Part shown: positions 13,107 through 63,612 of the stretch, one piece after another
Numbering within the stretch: the first letter of the stretch is position 1
How the letters are laid out: each line of letters starts with the position of its first letter
NCBI GenBank assembly: GCA_951406725.2
Contig: OX597833.1
Location: forward strand, 15,934,001 to 15,998,000
Length of the DNA stretch: 64,000 nt
Reading direction: 5' to 3'
Source: Octopus vulgaris
Taxonomy: Eukaryota
The notes under the pieces: model-generated
Databases searched by the model: none
What the model was told of the DNA's origin: nothing
What the model saw: the letters and a program-made list of their open reading frames with translations, nothing else
Made by a program: the position numbers and the translations under genes

Positions 13107-13499
13107 TCACCGTGGAGTTTGCTTATTAAGAAGCGTTTGGAATTTTTCAATAAAAAGATTCTCCTTGTTGATTCTTTCTTTTGTAGAGATTCTGTCTTTA
13201 CATTGGTAGAAAGGGAATATATGAAATTTGGGATTTTTATCTCTAGCGCAAGAGTCTATGTGGCTACTGAGTGGAATTTGACGGTATTGTGGTAGATTTA
13301 TCTGTTCTTTATGGACTCCTACTCTTCTGCGTAAGGGAAGGCTCGTTTGTCCGACATAATTTTGTTGGCAACCGGCGCATGTAAGAGCGTAGACGACGTT
13401 CTCGGAGGAACAGAAGTTGGTCTTGATTTTAAAATGTGTTCCTTGTTTGGAAGTAAATTCAGAGTCTTCAAGTAGGAAGGAGCAGGCAACATAAATTTT
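13107..13499 (-). mobile_element. Penelope-like retroelement (PLE) C-terminal GIY-YIG endonuclease fragment, 5'-truncated
   Basis: Manual translation of the stop-to-stop minus frame (no ATG): YVACSFLLEDSEFTSKQGTHFKIKTNFCSSENVVYALTCAGCQQNYVGQTSLPLRRRVGVHKEQINLPQYRQIPLSSHIDSC...ERINKENLFIEKFQTLLNKQTPR*. The NVVY..C..C...YVGQT...LRRR...H...E...LN layout is the PLE GIY-YIG signature. Confidence 0.88.
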
Positions 13500-18126: not shown

Positions 18127-18872
18127 TTTTCTACTCTAGGCACAAGGTCCAAAATTTTGTGGGGAGGAGGCCAGTCGATTAGATCGACCCCAGTACGCAA
18201 CTGGTACTTAATTTATCGACCCCGAAAGGATGAAAGGCAAAGTCGACCTCCGCGGAATTTGAACTCAGAACATAAAGATAGACGAAATACGGCTACGCAT
18301 TTCGCCCGGTGTGCTAACGGACAGACAAACGGATTAAGTCGATTATAACGACCCCAGTGCGTAACTGATACTTATTTAATCGACCCCGAAAGGATGAAAG
18401 GCAAAGTCGACCTCGGCGGAATTTGAATTAAGAACGTATCGGCAGACGAAATACCTATTTCTTTACTGCCCACAAGGGGCTAAACACAGAGAGGACGAAC
18501 AAGGACAGATAAACGGATTACGTCGATTATATGGACCCCAGTGCATAACTGGTACTTATTTAATCGACCCCCAAAGGATGAAAGGCAAAGTCGACATCGG
18601 CGGAATTTGAACTCAGAACGTAACGGCAGACGAAATACCTATTTCTTTACTACCCACAAGGGGCTAAACACAGAGAGGACAAACAAAGACAGACAAACGG
18701 ATTAAGTCGATTATATCGACCCCAGTGCGTAACTGGTGCTTATTTAATCGACCCTGAAAGGATGGAAGGCAAAGTCGACCTCGGCGGAATTTGAACTCAG
18801 AACGTAAAGCCTGACGAAACACCGGTAAGCATTTTGACCGGTGTGCTAACGTTTCCGCCAGCTCGCCGCCTT
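18127..18872 (-). mobile_element. Family A SINE multimer
   Basis: Repeated 184-bp units ending in GCCAGCTCGCCGCCTT. Confidence 0.9.
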
Positions 18873-27220: not shown

Positions 27221-28357
27221 AAGGCGGCGAGCTGGCAGAAGCGTTAGCACGCCGAGCGAAATGCGTAGCCGTATTTCGTCTGCCTCTACGCACTGAGTTC
27301 AAATTCCGCCGAGGTCGACTTTGCCTTTCATCCTTTCGGGGTCGATAAATAAAGTACCAGTTACGCACTGGGGTCGATATAATCGAATCGATCCCTCTGT
27401 CTGTCCTTGTTTGTACCCTCTGTGTTTAGCCCCTTGTGGGTTGAAAAGAAATAGGTATTTCGTCCGCCGCTGCGTTCTGAGTTCAAATTCCACCGAGGTC
27501 GACTTTGCCTTTCATTCTTTCGGGGTCGATTAAATAAGTGCCAGTTACGCACTGGGGTCGATATAATTGACTCAATCCCTTTGTCTGTCCTTGTTTGTCC
27601 CCTCTATGTTTAGCCCCTTGTGGGTAGTAAAGAAATAGGTATTTCTTCCGCCGCTGCGTTCTGAGTTCAAATTCCACCGAGGTCGACTTTGCCTTTCATC
27701 CTTTCGGGGTCGATAAATAAAGTACCAGTTACGCACTGGGGTCGATATAATCGAATCGATCCCTCTGTCTGTCCTTGTTTGTACCCTCTGTGTTTAGCCC
27801 CTTGTGGGTTGAAAAGAAATAGGTATTTCGTCCGCCGCTGCGTTCTGAGTTCAAATTCCACCGAGGTCGACTTTGCCTTTCATTCTTTCGGGGTCGATTA
27901 AATAAGTGCCAGTTACGCACTGGGGTCGATATAATTGACTCAATCCCTTTGTCTGTCCTTGTTTGTCCCCTCTATGTTTAGCCCCTTGTGGGTAGTAAAG
28001 AAATAGGTATTTCTTCCGCCGCTGCGTTCTGAGTTCAAATTCCACCGAGGTCGACTTTGCCTTTCATCCTTTCGGGGTCGATAAATAAAGTACCAGTTAC
28101 GCACTGGGGTCGATATAATCGACTCCATCCCTTTGTCTGTCCTTGTTTGTCCCCTCTATGTTTAGCCCCTTGTGGGTAGTAAAGAAATAGGTATTTCTTC
28201 CGCCGCTGCGTTCTGAGTTCAAATTCCACCGAGGTCGACTTTGCCTTTCATCCTTTCGGGGTCGATAAATAAAGTACCAGTTACGCACTGGAGTCGATAT
28301 AATCGACTCAATCCCTTTGTCTGTCCTTGTTTGTCCCCTCTATGTTTAGCCCCTTGT
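27221..28357 (+). mobile_element. Family A tRNA-derived SINE, ~6 tandem 184-bp units
   Basis: Head AAGGCGGCGAGCTGGCAGAA (A box-like), then repeated units with B box GTTCAAATTCC and GACTTTGCCTTTCATCCTTTCGGGGTCGAT. ORF-track translations repeat identically at a 368-bp offset. Confidence 0.92.
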
Positions 28358-42989: not shown

Positions 42990-43950
42990 TTTCAAATTTT
43001 GGCACAAGGCCAGCAATGTTGGAGGCGAGAGGTTAATCGATTACAGTACTCAACTGGTGCTTATTTTATCGACCTCAAAAGGATGAGAGGCAAAATAGAC
43101 CTCGACACGATTTGAACGCAGAACATAAAAATGGACGAAATACCGATTAGCATTTGGCACGGCTTACTGAAGATTCTTATATCTTTATTGCCCACAAGGG
43201 GTTAAATATAGAGGGGACAAACAAGGACATTATGTCGATTACATCGACCCCAGTGCGTAATTGGTACTTAATTTATCGACCCCGAAAGGATGAAAGGCAA
43301 AGTCGACCTCGGCGGAATTTGAGCTCAGTAGGTAACAGCAGACGAAATACCTATTTCTTTACTATCCACAAGGGGCTAAACACAGAGAGGACAAACAAGG
43401 ACAGAAAAATGGATTAAGTCGATTATATCGACCCCAGTGCGTAACTCGTACTTAATTTATCGACCCCGAAAGGATGAAAGGCAAAGTCGACCTCGGCGGA
43501 ATTTGAGCTCAGTAGGTAACAGCAGACGAAATACCTATTTCTTTACTACCCACAAGGGGCTAAACACAGAGAGGACAAACAAGGACAGAAAAATGGATTA
43601 AGTCGATTATATCGACCCAAGTGCGTAACTCGTACTTAATTTATCAACTCCGAAAGGATGAAAGGCAAAGTCGACCTCGGCGGAATTTGAACTCAGAACG
43701 TAGCGACAGACGAAATACCTATTTCTTTACTACCCACAAGTGACTAAACATAGAGGGGACTAACAAGGACAGACAAACGGATTAAGTCGATTACATCGAC
43801 CCCAGTGCGTAATTGGTACTTATTTAATCGACCCTGAAAGGATGAAAGGCAAAGTCGACCTCAGCTAATTTGAACTCAGAACGTAGCGGCAGACGAAATA
43901 CCGCTCAGTATTTTACACGGCTTACTAAAGATTCCGTCAGCTCAACACAT
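42990..43950 (-). mobile_element. Family A SINE multimer plus an older copy
   Basis: Four or five ~184-bp units. Confidence 0.88.
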
Positions 43951-51139: not shown

Positions 51140-52774
51140 ATTTGACTTACCTACAACACTGAAATTGCTGGACTTTTGCCAATATATGAAATCAATGTCG
51201 TATAATTAAATGACTTGGCGACTGGGGTGTAAAGTTTCGGTGTAGATATGTAGATAGCTATACCCTAGAGGGTTGAAATAAGTTACATATTCCAGCGACC
51301 AGCTTGAAATTTTTGATGAACTATCATATTAACGACCGTTTTGTTTTTATTCTAAAACTGCTCTAAATTAAATTATAAAACGGTCGTTAATTATGCACAA
51401 AATCAATAATATATTTGGAATCTGAAACGAATGATTTGATCAGAATGGAAAGCGGATGTGTTACTGAATGGTTGTTGTGAACCAATCAGTGCGTGAAACA
51501 CAAAGAATAGTAACCTATGCTTAACCGAAAAGTTATATATCAACCTTGTTAGTGAACTCGCTTTGTATAAGGAAAGTAACGTTTTTCGTTTGCTGACAAA
51601 CGAAATGCACAGGAAAAGTTTTAAGACACCCCGGGTCCATTCGAACTGCAAATCCAATATGGTTAACCAGATTTTTAGCCCAATACAACACATAGCCCAT
51701 AGTATTAACAGCACAATATACGCACTATAATAATTGACAAAATATTTTATGAACTACTTATGTGAAGAAGGAGCAAACAATTCGACCGGATTCGACCTCA
51801 AAACATCCTCTTCATTCCTACTTGCTGCATGCTCACACACACAAACCACACACACACAAACCTCGCACACACACAAAAACACACACATACACAAATACAC
51901 ACACAAAGACGCGCGCACGCACACATACACACACGCACAAACCACACACACACACAAACACAGGCACACAAACCACACACACAAAACACACACACAAACA
52001 CACGCACATACACACACAAACACACACACAAGGATGCACGCACACGGACACACACACACACACAGACAAACAGACACACATACACACACAAGGATGCACT
52101 CACACAGACATGCAACGACGCACGTACACAGACCCAGTCGCAAACCACACACACACACTTACACACACACAAGTATGCACGCACACAGACACGTACATAC
52201 ACACACACATGCACCCATACGCATACATACACACGTACATTTATGAAGCATCATTCACACATACACTACCCATAACTATAAAACCATCAGATTAGTATAA
52301 CTGTTATATTTATATCTTTATTTTTAATATCGCTCGATATAATAATTCTTCAGTCACATAAGGAAACAGAAGATTTCGCTCATTGCATAAATGCAATCAA
52401 AATGCATGTGTGCATACGTACTTAGACACAAAGCTTCTGTTGCCATAATTTCCTCACACATAACACACTTTAACAAACACACACACTTTCACACACATAG
52501 AATCGTGCCGCACCGGAAAAAGTGCTTAGCAGCATTTTTTCCGAGTTTATGTTCTGAGTTCAAATGCCTCCGGGAGTTTTGAGTTTCATCCTTTGAAATC
52601 TGGAGTCAATTTAATCAACTTGACCTGTTCCCAAAATTGCTGGCTTTGTGCCAAACTTTAAAACCATTATTTATACATAGTAAGTATATGTCCTGACGTA
52701 GCTGATTCATAATCAAAAACCTGCCGACCGTGACTATCTCTTGTATTCGTATATCTATGAAAACATTGATCATC

Positions 52775-53375
52775 TATTTCTTTACTACCCACAAGGAGCT
52801 ACACACAAAGAGGACACACAAGGACAGACAAACGGATTAAGTCGATTATATCGACCCCAGTGCGTAACTGGTAATTATTTAATCGACCCCGAAAGGATGA
52901 AAAGCAAAGTCGACCTCCGCGGAATTTGAGCTCAGAACGTAACGGCAGACGAAATGCCTATTTCTTTACTACTCACAAGGGGCTAAACACAGAGGGGACA
53001 AACAAGACAGACAAACGGATTAAGTTCGATTATATCGACCCCAGTGTGTAACTGGTACTTAATTTATCGACCCCGAAAGGATGAAAGGCAAAGTCGATCT
53101 CGGCGGATTTTGAACTCAGAACGTAGCGGCAGACGAAATACCTATTTCGTTACTACCCACAAGGGGCTAAACACAGAGGGGACAAACAAGGACAGACAAA
53201 CGGATTAAGTCGATTACATCGACTCCAGTGTGTAACTGGTACTTAATTTATCGACCCCGAAAGGATGAAAGGCAAAGTCGATCTCGGCGGATTTTGAACT
53301 CAGAACGTAGCGGCAGACAAAATACCGCTAAGCATTTCGCCCGGCTTACTAACCTTTCTGCCAGCACTCCGCCTT
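52775..53375 (-). mobile_element. Family A SINE trimer with 14-bp TSD
   Basis: AAACATTGATCATC (52761-52774) and AAACATTAATCATC (53376-53389). Confidence 0.9.
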
Positions 53376-54104: not shown

Positions 54105-54491
54105 GTGGAGGCGCAATGGCCCAGTGGTTAGGGCAGCGGACTCGCGGTCATAGGATCGCGGTTTCGATTCCCAGACCGGGCGTTGTGAGTGTTTATTGAG
54201 CGAAAACACCTAAAAAAGCTCCACGAGGCTCCGGCAGGGGATGGTGGTGATCCCTGCTGTACTCTTTCACCACAACTTTCTCTCACTCTTACTTCCTGTT
54301 TCTGTTGTACCTGTATTTCAAGGGGCCGGCCTTGTCACTCTCTGTGTCACGCTGAATATCCCCGAGAACTACGTTAAAGGTACGCGTGTCTGTGGAGTGC
54401 TCAGCCACTTACACGTTAATTTCACGAGCAGGCTGTTCCGTTGATTCGGATCAACCGGAACCCTCATCGTCGTAACCGACGGAGTGCTTCC
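54105..54491 (+). mobile_element. Family B tRNA-derived SINE (tRNA-Arg-like head), full length
   Basis: GGAGGCGCAATGGCCCAGTGGTTAGGGCAGCGGACTCGCGG...GTTTCGATTCC (A/B boxes), ending CCGACGGAGTGCTTCC. TSD AAATGTGCGT. Confidence 0.9.
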
Positions 54492-55286
54492 ATCAAATGT
54501 GCGTGTATGTATCTGGGCCTGTTTACATGTGTACACGTTTGCATCGATTTTTTATGTTTTTGTCTTGGTATTTGAAAATCTGGTATTCGATAAACTGTAA
54601 AATAGCAACACGATAAATGTGGAAAAATATATACCTATTTCTTTACTACCCACAAGGGGCTAAACACAGAGGGGACAAACAAGGACAGACAAACGGATTA
54701 AGTCGATTACATCGACCCCAGTGCGTAACTGGTACTTATTTAATCGACCCCGAAAGGATGAAAGGCAAAGTTGACCTCGGCGGAATTTGAACTCAGAATG
54801 TAGCGGCAGACGAAATACCGCTAGGCATTTCGCCCGGCGTGCTAACGTTTCTACCAGCTCGCCGCGTGGAAATATATATACCGCAATGAAATACTACGGT
54901 TGATGTGATTAAGTTCTAGAGGTCGGTACCCTATCATGGTCGAAGATTAATGACTGAAAGCAGAAAGAATTTTACAAATTGTAAGAATATATGATCGTGA
55001 TTACCGTAACCGACCAGGTTATCAGATGTTGCTACACATTGCCGGTCACAATGCGCATCACATTGTTTTAGCCTTCAAATGACGCCACGCCACTGAAGAA
55101 AGCGTGAGAGAAAGTTATGGCGAAAGAGTACAGCAGGTATCGCCATCATCTCCTGCCGGAGGCTCGTGGAGCTTTAGGCGTTTTCGTTCAGTAAACACTC
55201 ACAACGCCCGCTCTGGGAATCGAAACCGCGATCGTGCGACCGCGAGTCCGCTGCTCTAACCACTGGGCCATTGCGACTCACCTTAT

Positions 55287-55615: not shown

Positions 55616-56412
55616 TGTTATGTTACGTTATGTTACGGAAGATGCATCCGTTGTACTTTCGAAACAATTGTAGAACTCGACAATCCCCGCCATCTGTTTT
55701 ATTTACAGATCTGTTTATTGCATTGTAAGCAACGGTTACTGCTTTCAAAATATAATTGTATAGCACCTGTCATCTTATTCGAATTTTCTATCTAAACTCT
55801 ATAGAGGAAGAAATATATTTCATACATTTATTAATAAATGTAATTCATCAATTATCAAAATATCATTGTTTTCTCTACATGCCGCCTTTATGCTAAAAGT
55901 TAAGAAACCGCGTTTTATTATCACTCACCTGATCATACTACAGTATACTCACACACACACACACAGACACACAGGCGCGCGCGCGCACACACACGCACAT
56001 ACACACACACACACACACACGCACACACACACACACGCACATGCACATTTTTCATTCTCTCTCTGTTTATTTTCTCTTATTCCTTTCTGTTGAAGAGCGT
56101 AGCACTGAAATGTAAAAAGCTTTTTTCATTTCTCCGGGCGTCAAACTAATACACTTGCTTGTTGTTCATACACCTGTCTTCGTCTTTCGTTTTTCTATAA
56201 ATTTCCCACATATATATATACTCTTTTACTCATTTACTTGTTTCAGTCATTTGACTGCGGCCATGCTGGACCCCGGGACTTATTCTTTTGTAAGCCCAGT
56301 ACTTTTCTATCGGTCTCTTTTGCCGAACCACTAAGTAACGGGGACATAAACACACCAGCATCGGTTGTCAAGCAATGCTAGGGGGACAAACACAGACACA
56401 CAAACACACACA

Positions 56413-56659: not shown

Positions 56660-56840
56660 AGATCGCTAGCCACTACACATTTTTTATTTTCTTTCCTTGT
56701 TTCTTTCTGTGTTCCTTTCTGTGGAAGAGCGTAGGCTCGAAACGTTAAAGACTTTTTCACTTCTCGAGCGTTAAACTAATACATCTGTTTGTTGTTCATA
56801 CGCCTGTCTTCGTCTTTTGCTTTACTTTAAATGTAAACTT
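56660..56840 (+). mobile_element. Short PLE-like element with a minimal hammerhead variant; diverged direct copy at ~56047-56207
   Basis: CTTT-CTGTGGA-A-GAGC-gtag-GCTC-GAAA-CG-TT-AAAG at 56715-56750. The degenerate copy is at 56083-56119, and both share the downstream AAACTAATACA...CCTGTCTTCGTCTTT. Confidence 0.55.
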
Positions 56841-58723: not shown

Positions 58724-58958
<235 letters not shown>

Positions 58959-59021
58959 ATGATTGATATATATATATATAGATATATGTAAATATAGTAT
59001 GTGACAATTATTCGTAGCCAT

Positions 59022-59082
59022 GATAAAACTCCGAGTTTCGGATGTCGGGACGGAAACCCACGCCGCCATCTCTTCAGTTATC
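59022..59082 (-). ncRNA. Type I hammerhead ribozyme motif (left arm of a foldback)
   Basis: The reverse complement reads GATAA-CTGAAGA-GATG...CATC-C-GAAA-CTCGGAG-TT-TTATC, with a perfect stem I (GATAA/TTATC). Confidence 0.75.
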
Positions 59083-59103
59083 CGGCCAATTTTTTCGATG
59101 GGC

Positions 59104-59166
59104 TGATGACTGAAGAGATGGCAGCGTGGGTTTCCGCGCCGACATCCGAAACTCGGAGTTTTATCA
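59104..59166 (+). ncRNA. Type I hammerhead ribozyme motif (right arm of a foldback)
   Basis: TGATGA (stem I) - CTGAAGA core - GATG...CATC (stem II, plus one extra C) - GAAA - stem III ACTC-G-GAGT - GUU cleavage triplet - TTATCA (stem I'). Confidence 0.75.
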
Positions 59167-59699
59167 TGGCTACCGAATAATTGTCACGCATTATATTTAC
59201 AGATAAATTCCTCTATTTACATAATATCGAGGTCTCTTTCATTCTTTTGTTGTCTTACCATTTTCTATCAATATATATATATATATATATGATGTGTGTG
59301 TATGAATGTACGTGTCTGTGCGTGCATATACGCGTGTGCACACTAGTAGGGATCAATGAGAACGAGTGGTCAACACCGTATTGGTGGAAAATTATTATTT
59401 ATTTGTGTGTTAACGTGGCAAACATCTTGGTACTCTCATTCAAAAAGGTGAGGAGAACCCACGCTTGACCAATTGTGAAAACCTTTGTACATGAAAACAT
59501 TGGTTGCTTTGTTTACCCACAAACAATGTTTATATACAAACACACACACTCACACCCATACATATATATATACATAGATGTGTGTGTGTGTGTGTGTGTA
59601 TGATGGACTCTCCCGTCGGTTTCGATGTTTGAGGCTTCGACAACGTGCTTAATGCTTTTGTGACGGTTAAGTTCCGCCAGCGATTTTCAAAGAAGACCA

Positions 59700-61448: not shown

Positions 61449-63612
61449 GCAGAACATCCGGCGCAGCTGCGGTCGAAAACTAGTAATAAAATCTCAGATA
61501 TTTATTCTTGAATGACTATATTTTATACTTAATATGCAATAATTCTTAAACTAATGGGAAAATAAGTGTTGGCAAGTAAAGGACACGTACAAATATAACC
61601 ATTCACATAACCAATGGAAACCGGAGTAAATATTTGGAGAAAATTCGAACAACCGGATATCCAAACTGCAAGTGATTAAGAAATTATATAATGTGTTGTG
61701 GTGGTGAACCCCGACCTACTGCAGCGATCTCCTCTGCTGTCACAGTCATACGTTTTAAACCCAGAGGTGCCATCACATTTGGGTGTTACAATCGCTCTAA
61801 TACCCATTGCGTGGAGTGTCTCGGAGTCCTAGTATCACGATCCACGTTGTTGGCCGTATATCGAACTATTTCACTGTCTGAAGAATGTTTCCGCATTGAA
61901 CCGTTCTGTTTCACTCGGATGACCAAATTACTTTCTACATTCTCTGTGAACAACATCACCCGGTTTCTCCACAATATTAGATCCACGTTGAAGACGTGAT
62001 TTTGCTATGCCTTTACAACCTTTGTCACCCAGTGTGACTGTTGCACCATTTCTCTGTTTCTTGTTATAAAATACGCAGTCTGCTACGATGACTCTGAAGA
62101 AAAAATGGTTGATTATTAATATAGACTTAAAGACAGACATTATGAGAAAACCTGCATGTGTTGTGTTGTGTTGTTGCTTTCGTTTTTTGTTCCTTCTCGA
62201 GCCATGTTTGGCTCATAAGAGCCGGTTTTCCAGTTACATTGACGTATAGGTTCCCCGTCGCAGGTGAGCTGCAAGATGCAGGAAGAAAGAGTGAGAGTAA
62301 GTTGTGGCGAAAGAGTCAGCAGAAGATCGCCATTACCTTCTGCCAGAGCCGCGTGGAGCTTGTGTGTTTCGCTCATAAAAACACACATCGCCCGATCTGA
62401 GACTCGAAAAAACGTTCCCTCGACCGCGAGTCCGCTACTTTAACCACTAGGTCATGCGCCTCCTCAAACCTGCATGTAGTTATGAATATTACTACCTATA
62501 ATGATGCAGCACAGACATCCAAACTATAGAATCCAATACTTGGACATGCCATATCATACACACTTCTTATACCAATCATATAGAACATACAATGCCCGTT
62601 AAGAGTTAAAATGGGATGAGGGTACCCCTGGTAAATGTATAAGGCAGCCCCAAATCTCTTGGCAGACATTTCCATGGGAAAGATATACCAGAAAAACATA
62701 GGTTTCAACACAAAAATGGTTTGATAGCTTCATGAAAAGTGTTGCTGTGCCTGTCTGTACCTTGGTTGTCTAATCCTGAAATCCAAAAGTTCTCCACTGA
62801 AAAAAAATATCGTTATATTCAAAAGATTTTGTGAGGCTTTTAGTCTATCATAAATGGTACCCTACTGAACAAATTCCAACAGGTTTCGTTTCTGTTGGAA
62901 TTAGTGGTGGGTTCTGGGGAATAGCAACTAATTTGACTGGACTATATGCATATATTGTGGAGGCACATGGCCTAGGGGTTAGAGCAGAGGACTCGCAGTC
63001 GAGGCTTCGTAGATTCGAATCTCAGACCGGGCGATGTGTGTGTTTATGAGCGAAACACCTAAACTTCACGTGCCTCCTGCAGAAGGTAAAGGCGAACTTC
63101 TGCTGACTCTTTCGCCATAACTTTCTCTCACTCTTTCCTCCTGCATCTTGCAGCTCACCTGCGACGAACCGGCGTCCCGTCCATTTGGAGAACCTATACT
63201 CCAAGGAAACCGGGAAACCGGACCTTATGAGCTAGGCGTGGCACGAGAAGGAACAAACAATATGTACATATTACATTTATGTCCGTCATAGATTTGAGAA
63301 TTTTGAAACGTATCATATTAATCCCTCAATGTATGAAATGTCAACAAATTTAAGAGAACAAAAGGTCTCTGGCAACCCTTGAGAAACCTACATAAAATTG
63401 GCCTCTTGAGATATGCATAAATCAGCAAATTAAGAAATTAAGAGGGAATACAACTCTTGAAAAACCTATTTAAAATTGGCCTGTGTCAAAGTGTTTGTCA
63501 AGTGGACGCCTGTAATTATCAATGTCTGCTCTTGGAATTTGCTAATTGACCGAGGCGAGGCTTAAAATTCTTAGAAACTGGAGTCATCTAAATAAAAGTA
63601 GTCTATCAATCA

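Follow-up and report, generated by a model that had tools for sequence, protein, structure and literature searches.

Head-to-head ends of a Penelope-like element as the probable source of a hammerhead-bearing foldback in octopus DNA

Why should a short piece of octopus DNA carry a palindrome with a hammerhead ribozyme motif on each strand? The locus lies towards the end of a 64,000-nt stretch of genomic DNA, which we refer to as the window. The original prediction read it as a potential cleavage switch, in which transcription from either direction would yield a ribozyme competing with a long double-stranded RNA (dsRNA) hairpin, or as a substrate for ADAR or for siRNA production. We asked what the foldback is made of, where related copies occur, and whether its arrangement is compatible with a functional device.

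Anatomy of the foldback and its hammerhead motifs

The 187-bp palindrome described at 59001-59187 held up as a foldback, with 79 of 85 aligned positions identical between the arms and two gaps, but its extent had to be redrawn. The palindrome covers about 223 bp (58983-59205; the arms agree at 93 of 103 aligned positions), and the right arm is 66 bp longer, continuing as an unpaired one-sided tail to 59271. Both ends of the foldback run into (TA)n, where a target-site duplication would be hidden. The foldback is real but ordinary: it consists of two short, ribozyme-bearing Penelope-type ends arranged head to head. Its parts are as follows.

58966-58982: left (TA)n target tract
58983-59086, minus strand: left arm, an inverted and 5'-truncated pLTR copy that enters (TA)n at a short 3' end (about +44 relative to the predicted cut) and belongs, by end class, with the family's short arms
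59022-59082, minus strand: type I hammerhead motif, from sequence, with C3 at 59077 and U17 at 59027
59080-59095: junction at which the two 5'-truncated ends meet head to head (near 59086/59087); its sequence differs from locus to locus in the family
59087-59271, plus strand: right arm, a 5'-truncated pLTR copy whose 3' end is long (about +110), placing it in the end class of the family's long arms
59105-59165, plus strand: type I hammerhead motif, from sequence, with stem I at 59105-59109/59161-59165, CUGAAGA at 59110-59116, stem II at 59117-59147, GAA at 59148-59150, stem III at 59151-59159 and U17 at 59160
59206-59271, plus strand: one-sided tail of 66 bp, found between the ribozyme and the ORF start in a near-full-length copy
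59271-59290: right (TA)n target tract

The claim of an intact-looking hammerhead on each strand was confirmed, as both arms contain the full type I motif. The type I core (C3 U4 G5 A6 N7 G8 A9 / G12 A13 A14, A15.1-U16.1, H17, G10.1:C11.1) is complete in each, being represented by C3-U4-G5-A6-A7-G8-A9, G10.1:C11.1, G12-A13-A14-A15.1, U16.1 and U17, and stem III is ACUC-G-GAGU with a 1-nt loop in both. C3 falls at 59110 in the plus arm, with the predicted cut after 59160, and at 59077 in the minus arm, with the predicted cut after 59027. The GAAA element named in the original prediction is present, except that its last A already opens stem III. In stem II, a C bulges out next to G10.1:C11.1 and there are internal mismatches.

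The Infernal search that had been proposed as a check gave no support: neither arm was matched by any Rfam hammerhead model. No Rfam family reached its gathering score in the 64-kb window, and an E-value scan of 58900-59300, which took both arms together, returned 14 rows, hairpin-type and weak, with 0 hammerhead models. At the level of the family, the hammerhead is probably genuine.

The arms had also been said to differ in the 5' strand of stem I while pairing in both. The 3' strand of stem I is indeed identical in the two arms and only the 5' strand differs, but pairing is kept only in part. In the plus arm, a private A>G, seen in 0 of 81 sampled arms, gives a G-U wobble; a T at a CpG-prone site, shared with 7 of the 81, pairs by chance; and a C>G disrupts a distal pair. 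The difference between the arms is private mutation, with no covariation.

The repeat family and the decay of its ribozymes

The genome searched is 2.8 Gb in size and microsatellite-rich, and the locus has many relatives in it. A single-arm query gave 47 scored matches from 954 candidates, while a 23-mer taken from just 3' of the ribozyme had 2,086 exact genomic matches, compared with 0 for a control, so that the family comprises at least 2,086 arm copies. The foldback pattern itself, with a spacer of 10-40 nt, had 176 exact genomic matches, compared with 0 for the reversed control. The pattern is thus not due to chance, and equally it is not special to this locus.

The coding part of the element could be followed at locus L023 (extended as L031, on contig C2), where the ribozyme and tail are followed by about 2.1 kb of decayed ORF containing the motifs RMRWK, SDKT, FDIVDFY, GSYDG, YKDD and CSCRDKNLC and a C-terminal endonuclease-like region. 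The RWK motif, which replaces GxKF/Y, was found as RMRWK in the translations of L023/L031, L002 and L006, and the change from DKG to DKT as FSDKTKNLY in L031. The RT motifs are followed by CSCRDKNLC, a CxCX5C linker, and then by a region that aligns with the C-terminus of protein P0017 over 135 aa at 31% identity. Searched with the RT piece, 26 proteins among 241 candidates matched at E<=1e-10, with 42-55% identity; RW[KR], DKT and the CxC linker were present in the three RT relatives examined, and one relative (P0015) matched Pfam RVT_1 below the curated cutoff. Pfam reported neither RT nor GIY-YIG in five decayed ORF pieces or in proteins P0001, P0017 and P0024, and the clade call therefore rests on motifs and homology. 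Runs of (TA)3 or more lie near 74 of 88 sampled family ends, compared with 377 of 1,780 background windows, and the window locus has (TA)n on both flanks.

RWK, DKT, CxCX5C, a length below 3 kb and (TA)n targets define the Hydra clade in the available portion of Craig et al. (2021, PMC8557442), and on motifs and homology we assign the element to Hydra-clade Penelope-like elements (PLEs). It resembles the members described there (Hydra-1_Obim, Hydra-2_Amil and Penelope-13_HM) in the RWK, DKT and CxCX5C signatures, the (TA)n target, the size of <3 kb, and a 3' hammerhead whose stem III has 4 bp and a 1-nt loop. It differs from them in that stem II is longer, interrupted and has a bulged C next to G10.1:C11.1, and in a tail of about 66 bp as against 30-40. 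The family is distinct from Hydra-1_Obim, as stems I-III differ and the N-terminal protein differs by eye; it may already be catalogued in Repbase or Dfam.

The likeness to dimer-type PLE hammerheads noted in the original prediction was borne out, the motif being a Hydra-clade pLTR hammerhead. In the part of PMC8557442 concerned, Hydra-2_aMil and Penelope-16_HM appear with the same ACTC-g-GAGT stem III, the stems of Hydra-1_oBim differ, and Penelope-13_HM is given with an inverted 5'-truncated copy and a hammerhead on both strands. The minimal or dimer-type hammerheads of Cervera and de la Pena (2014, PMC4209133, as far as available) share the type I topology, palindromic stem III, long stem II and G10.1:C11.1 pair; the motif here differs from them in having no unpaired base between A9 and 10.1, an extra base on the 3' side of stem II, and a GUU triplet (GUC in part of a second subfamily). 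The same source describes opposite-strand hammerhead pairs 100-700 bp apart in Schistosoma. Like the non-LTR retrozymes of bioRxiv 10.64898/2026.07.22.740005 (in the portion available), the repeats here are non-coding, PLE-derived and hammerhead-bearing; unlike the direct tandem arrays of retrozymes, the foldback is an inverted pair with no tandem unit.

Among 81 sampled arms, 52 have an intact core; two intact arms are therefore expected in about four of ten twin inserts, and their co-occurrence at the window locus is unremarkable. Non-CpG core positions in the 81 arms carry 28 changes in 798, compared with 125 in 2,891 elsewhere (30.5 expected; Fisher p=0.37). In dispersed copies the core erodes at the rate expected under neutrality, with no sign of copy-level selection. 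Covariation within the main family amounts to 6 two-sided cells against 129 broken ones.

A second subfamily (L137-L166) had 56 exact anchor matches, of which 30 were fetched and 22 were indel-free, its 5' side being fixed by the search anchor. The subfamilies differ by two changes that affect both sides of a pair, three that affect one side only and one pair that is broken. A distal stem I pair goes from G-U in the main family to U-A in the second, and one stem II pair, U-A in 47 and U-G in 27 of the 81 main-family arms, is C-G in 20 of the 22 second-subfamily arms. Another stem I pair becomes a wobble in the second subfamily and another stem II pair is broken (A-C in 17 of 22 arms). The core is unchanged, and H17 is U (GUU triplet) in 12 and C (GUC) in 10 of the 22 indel-free arms.

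Twin inserts and the mechanism of integration

The arrangement of family members was examined in the first 100 listed 23-mer matches, which gave 89 loci on contig C1 after 11 pairs were merged (L047-L136, plus L034); this sample spans the first 144 Mb of one contig and required an exact 23-mer. An inverted partner lies directly upstream, head to head, at 62 of the 89 loci (70%), and the other 27 are single arms; no tail-to-tail pair occurred among the first 100 matches listed. Sixty of the 61 scorable pairs combine a long and a short arm, one is short/short and none is long/long. In unequal pairs, one 3' end lies at about +112 and the other at about +41 to +48; where BLAST alignments end at +67, they have run on into a TA repeat. 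Because the single arms divide into 14 short and 13 long, only about half of the pairs would be expected to be unequal if the ends were independent. The window locus matches the family pattern, its left arm being short and its right arm long.

In both arms of the twins the 3' ends are fixed and the 5' ends variable. Junctions vary between loci and many overlap by a few bases; since they differ at each locus, the palindrome was likely built at insertion. Twin arms share their subfamily haplotype: in the 21 twins that have two complete ribozymes, the distance is 8 compared with 37.4 under permutation, and 0 of 20,000 permutations gave so low a value. They also share 11 of 126 variant sites, compared with 5.4 expected (244 of 20,000 permutations), which may reflect finer subfamilies or some conversion between arms. 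The two arms in the window carry the same subfamily markers, one CpG-prone site excepted.

At three loci (L047, L097 and L131) the 13-nt palindrome of stem III forms the exact centre of the junction, and the resulting palindromes lack the ribozyme core. At four others (L112, L132, L088 and L108) ORF fragments lie inside the inserts, at or between the inverted arms, which suggests extra template jumps. Of 89 anchored arms, 37 have a 5' end that lies 61-90 nt before the cut site, within a U-rich tract preceding the ribozyme, and only 13 reach further upstream; this cluster may mark a site where transcription starts, where the RT stops or where microhomology is concentrated.

A pile-up of 5' ends at the ribozyme cut site would be a genomic sign of cleavage in vivo. 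Matches to the junction patterns numbered 32 for the cut site, 30 for -2 and 13 for +3, and no clear peak stood out among these three positions in what is a weak test. The 30 cut-site loci, judged by eye, comprised about 12 microhomology joins and about eight internal mutants, the rest being blunt or unclear.

The general shape of such inserts is already published (Arkhipova 2013, Cervera 2014, Craig 2021), while the long/short rule is counted here (60/61). The insertion unit of EN+ PLEs (Arkhipova et al. 2013, PMC3846280; Craig et al. 2021, Fig. 2 legend; available portions) is likewise head to head, with the tail on one arm and microhomology or a palindrome at the junction. Its inverted 5'-truncated copy at the 5' end and its tail at one end only are found at the window locus and in 60 of 61 scorable twins. 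Compared with that unit the window insert is a minimal form, with both arms <200 bp and no ORF left. The relevant sections of PMC3846280 describe an inverted pLTR, a one-sided tail and head-to-head junction palindromes, and read the junctions as self-priming on an antisense template; PMC8557442, where it illustrates a typical PLE insert, draws an inverted pLTR and a one-sided tail. Searches judged by title returned no paper on twin priming in Penelope elements and, for octopus Penelope hammerheads, Craig et al. as the only one concerned with PLEs.

We consider it very probable that the foldback represents two 5'-truncated, hammerhead-bearing Hydra-clade PLE ends that sit head to head within a TA repeat; a single insertion event is the likely origin, and the decay that followed has likely been neutral. 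The element endonuclease would cut both strands of the (TA)n target, and each 3' end would then prime reverse transcription on uncleaved element RNA, beginning at a far site (about +112) for one cDNA and at a near site (about +45) for the other. Both cDNAs would halt shortly past the ribozyme, and their truncated ends would be joined, often via short microhomology. The hammerhead would be the element's own, maintained by selection in source elements, and read-through RNA at the present locus would form a hairpin of about 100 bp that masks the ribozyme. We infer this priming model from the end positions and from the enzyme of another clade: for the Poseidon element, the available text of PMC11167929 reports cutting and extension on both strands with a predicted protein dimer, two RT start sites that bound the tail, and ribozyme cleavage that is dispensable in vitro. 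The 70% of twins, the 60 of 61 unequal ends, the matched haplotypes and the lack of a clear cut-site pile-up fit two-start copying of uncleaved RNA, as seen in vitro for that other clade.

The same origin could be reached by other chemistry, in which one cDNA folds back, self-primes and is recopied, and the endonuclease resolves the second end to leave a one-sided tail. This route is possible, if somewhat unlikely: self-priming was proposed in PMC3846280 and endonuclease-mediated resolution of the tail in PMC8557442 (portions available), and the short overlaps at many junctions, the three junctions centred on stem III and the shared haplotypes of the arms are all in its favour. It is opposed by the mapping of the tail between two RT start sites in the available part of PMC11167929, by fixed 3' ends with variable 5' ends, as expected from two primed cDNAs, and by unrelated or extra ORF pieces between the arms at L112, L132 and L088. 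The chance that the foldback is itself mobile (MITE-like, foldback or retrozyme-like) and copied as a palindrome appears close to negligible, even though hundreds of similar foldbacks occur in the genome, as essentially every locus has its own spacer and arm lengths, 27 of the 89 loci are single arms, the ends are unequal, unlike terminal inverted repeats, and the 89 loci include no tandem ribozyme array of this family. A MITE, a foldback DNA transposon and a retrozyme were accordingly set aside, the sampled copies having no common internal junction, equal ends or direct tandems.

The 60/61 long/short rule and the single subfamily of both arms lead us to speculate, as a long shot, that one asymmetric complex serves both cut strands. 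Two element RNAs would be held together by the palindromic stem III and each copied once, from a different start, by a protein dimer, so that the hammerhead would act as an RNA-pairing scaffold and not as a cutter. The locus is a common transposon scar, and its family offers a large natural sample for studying PLE integration and the role of the hammerhead, with the counted one-long-one-short rule as a handle on the former.

Folding, transcripts and neighbouring repeats

The minimum free energy of the foldback is about -153 kcal/mol, and the ensemble constrained to the hammerhead lies above the free ensemble by 94.6 kcal/mol on the plus strand and 95.4 kcal/mol on the minus strand. Owing to the head-to-head order, the antisense arm is transcribed first in either direction, and the hairpin partner is thus ready when the ribozyme emerges. 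Together, the gap of about 95 kcal/mol and the early antisense arm predict no competition between hairpin and ribozyme, which gives no support to the proposed cleavage switch; in these models the hairpin is predicted to silence the ribozyme instead of switching it. The motif could be used only by an RNA that initiates between the arms. For a lone arm, the monomer hammerhead fold lies 8-10 kcal/mol above the ensemble by nearest-neighbour energies only, and a double hammerhead lies about 8 kcal/mol above an inactive dimer that pairs GAAA with UUUU, in a nearest-neighbour model that ignores core contacts. Published PLE hammerheads cleave slowly, as dimers or aided by protein, in the available portions of PMC4209133, PMC6765202 and PMC11167929.

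A locus acting as a functional switch, with ribozyme and hairpin competing in transcripts from either direction, is for these reasons very improbable. Both cores are intact and the family's ribozyme shows compensatory change between subfamilies, as such a device would favour, but the antisense arm precedes the ribozyme whichever way the locus is transcribed, the ribozyme fold is less favourable than the hairpin by about 95 kcal/mol, and the motifs sit on opposite strands, which makes a double hammerhead in cis impossible. Moreover, an intact core is common (52/81 arms, with both intact in about 4/10 twins expected) and copies decay neutrally. We hold a by-product reading to be doubtful but less so: read-through would give about 100 bp of dsRNA for ADAR editing or Dicer, which would contribute to silencing the family. 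In favour of this, the hairpin is long, with about 90% of it paired, contigs from 7 of 7 probable RNA runs contain family sequence, and small RNAs from Penelope copies are described in a rotifer in the available part of PMC3846280. Against it, the variants listed at the arms showed no excess of A>G (in contigs, where rare variants are lost and copies become mixed), inspection by eye of the window's long ORFs revealed no host exon, and hundreds of sister foldbacks are equivalent, so that this locus is not singled out. The runs compared were eight, all in the form of contigs, and seven of them are probably RNA. Among the listed contig pieces of these seven, none spans the locus junction into unique flank, and contigs cannot show editing or RNA ends. 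The 74 long ORFs of the window, inspected by eye with one scanned against Pfam, included no obvious host-gene exon. A role as ADAR or siRNA substrate is plausible for any such foldback if transcribed, and the foldbacks would then be hundreds of potential dsRNA sources in the genome.

Several other repeats lie in the window. A 130-aa open frame at 13107-13499 (minus strand) has a GIY-YIG match above the Pfam cutoff (25.7 bits) and, by this similarity, is likely to be what remains of another Penelope-like element. A different repeat is represented by two diverged copies, at 56044-56202 and 56676-56832 (plus strand), which have a minimal hammerhead-like core (GAAGAGCGTAG...GAAAC/T) with core bases altered in both, and are probably another PLE end. 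A repeat family of 172-184 bp forms about eight arrays, as short tandems of two to six copies in both orientations (for example 18319-18823, 27271-28357, 43229-43902 and 52774-53326). Finally, a dispersed repeat is found at 54116-54196, 55192-55271, 62376-62455 and 62967-63047; its start looks tRNA-derived by eye, and it may be SINE-like.
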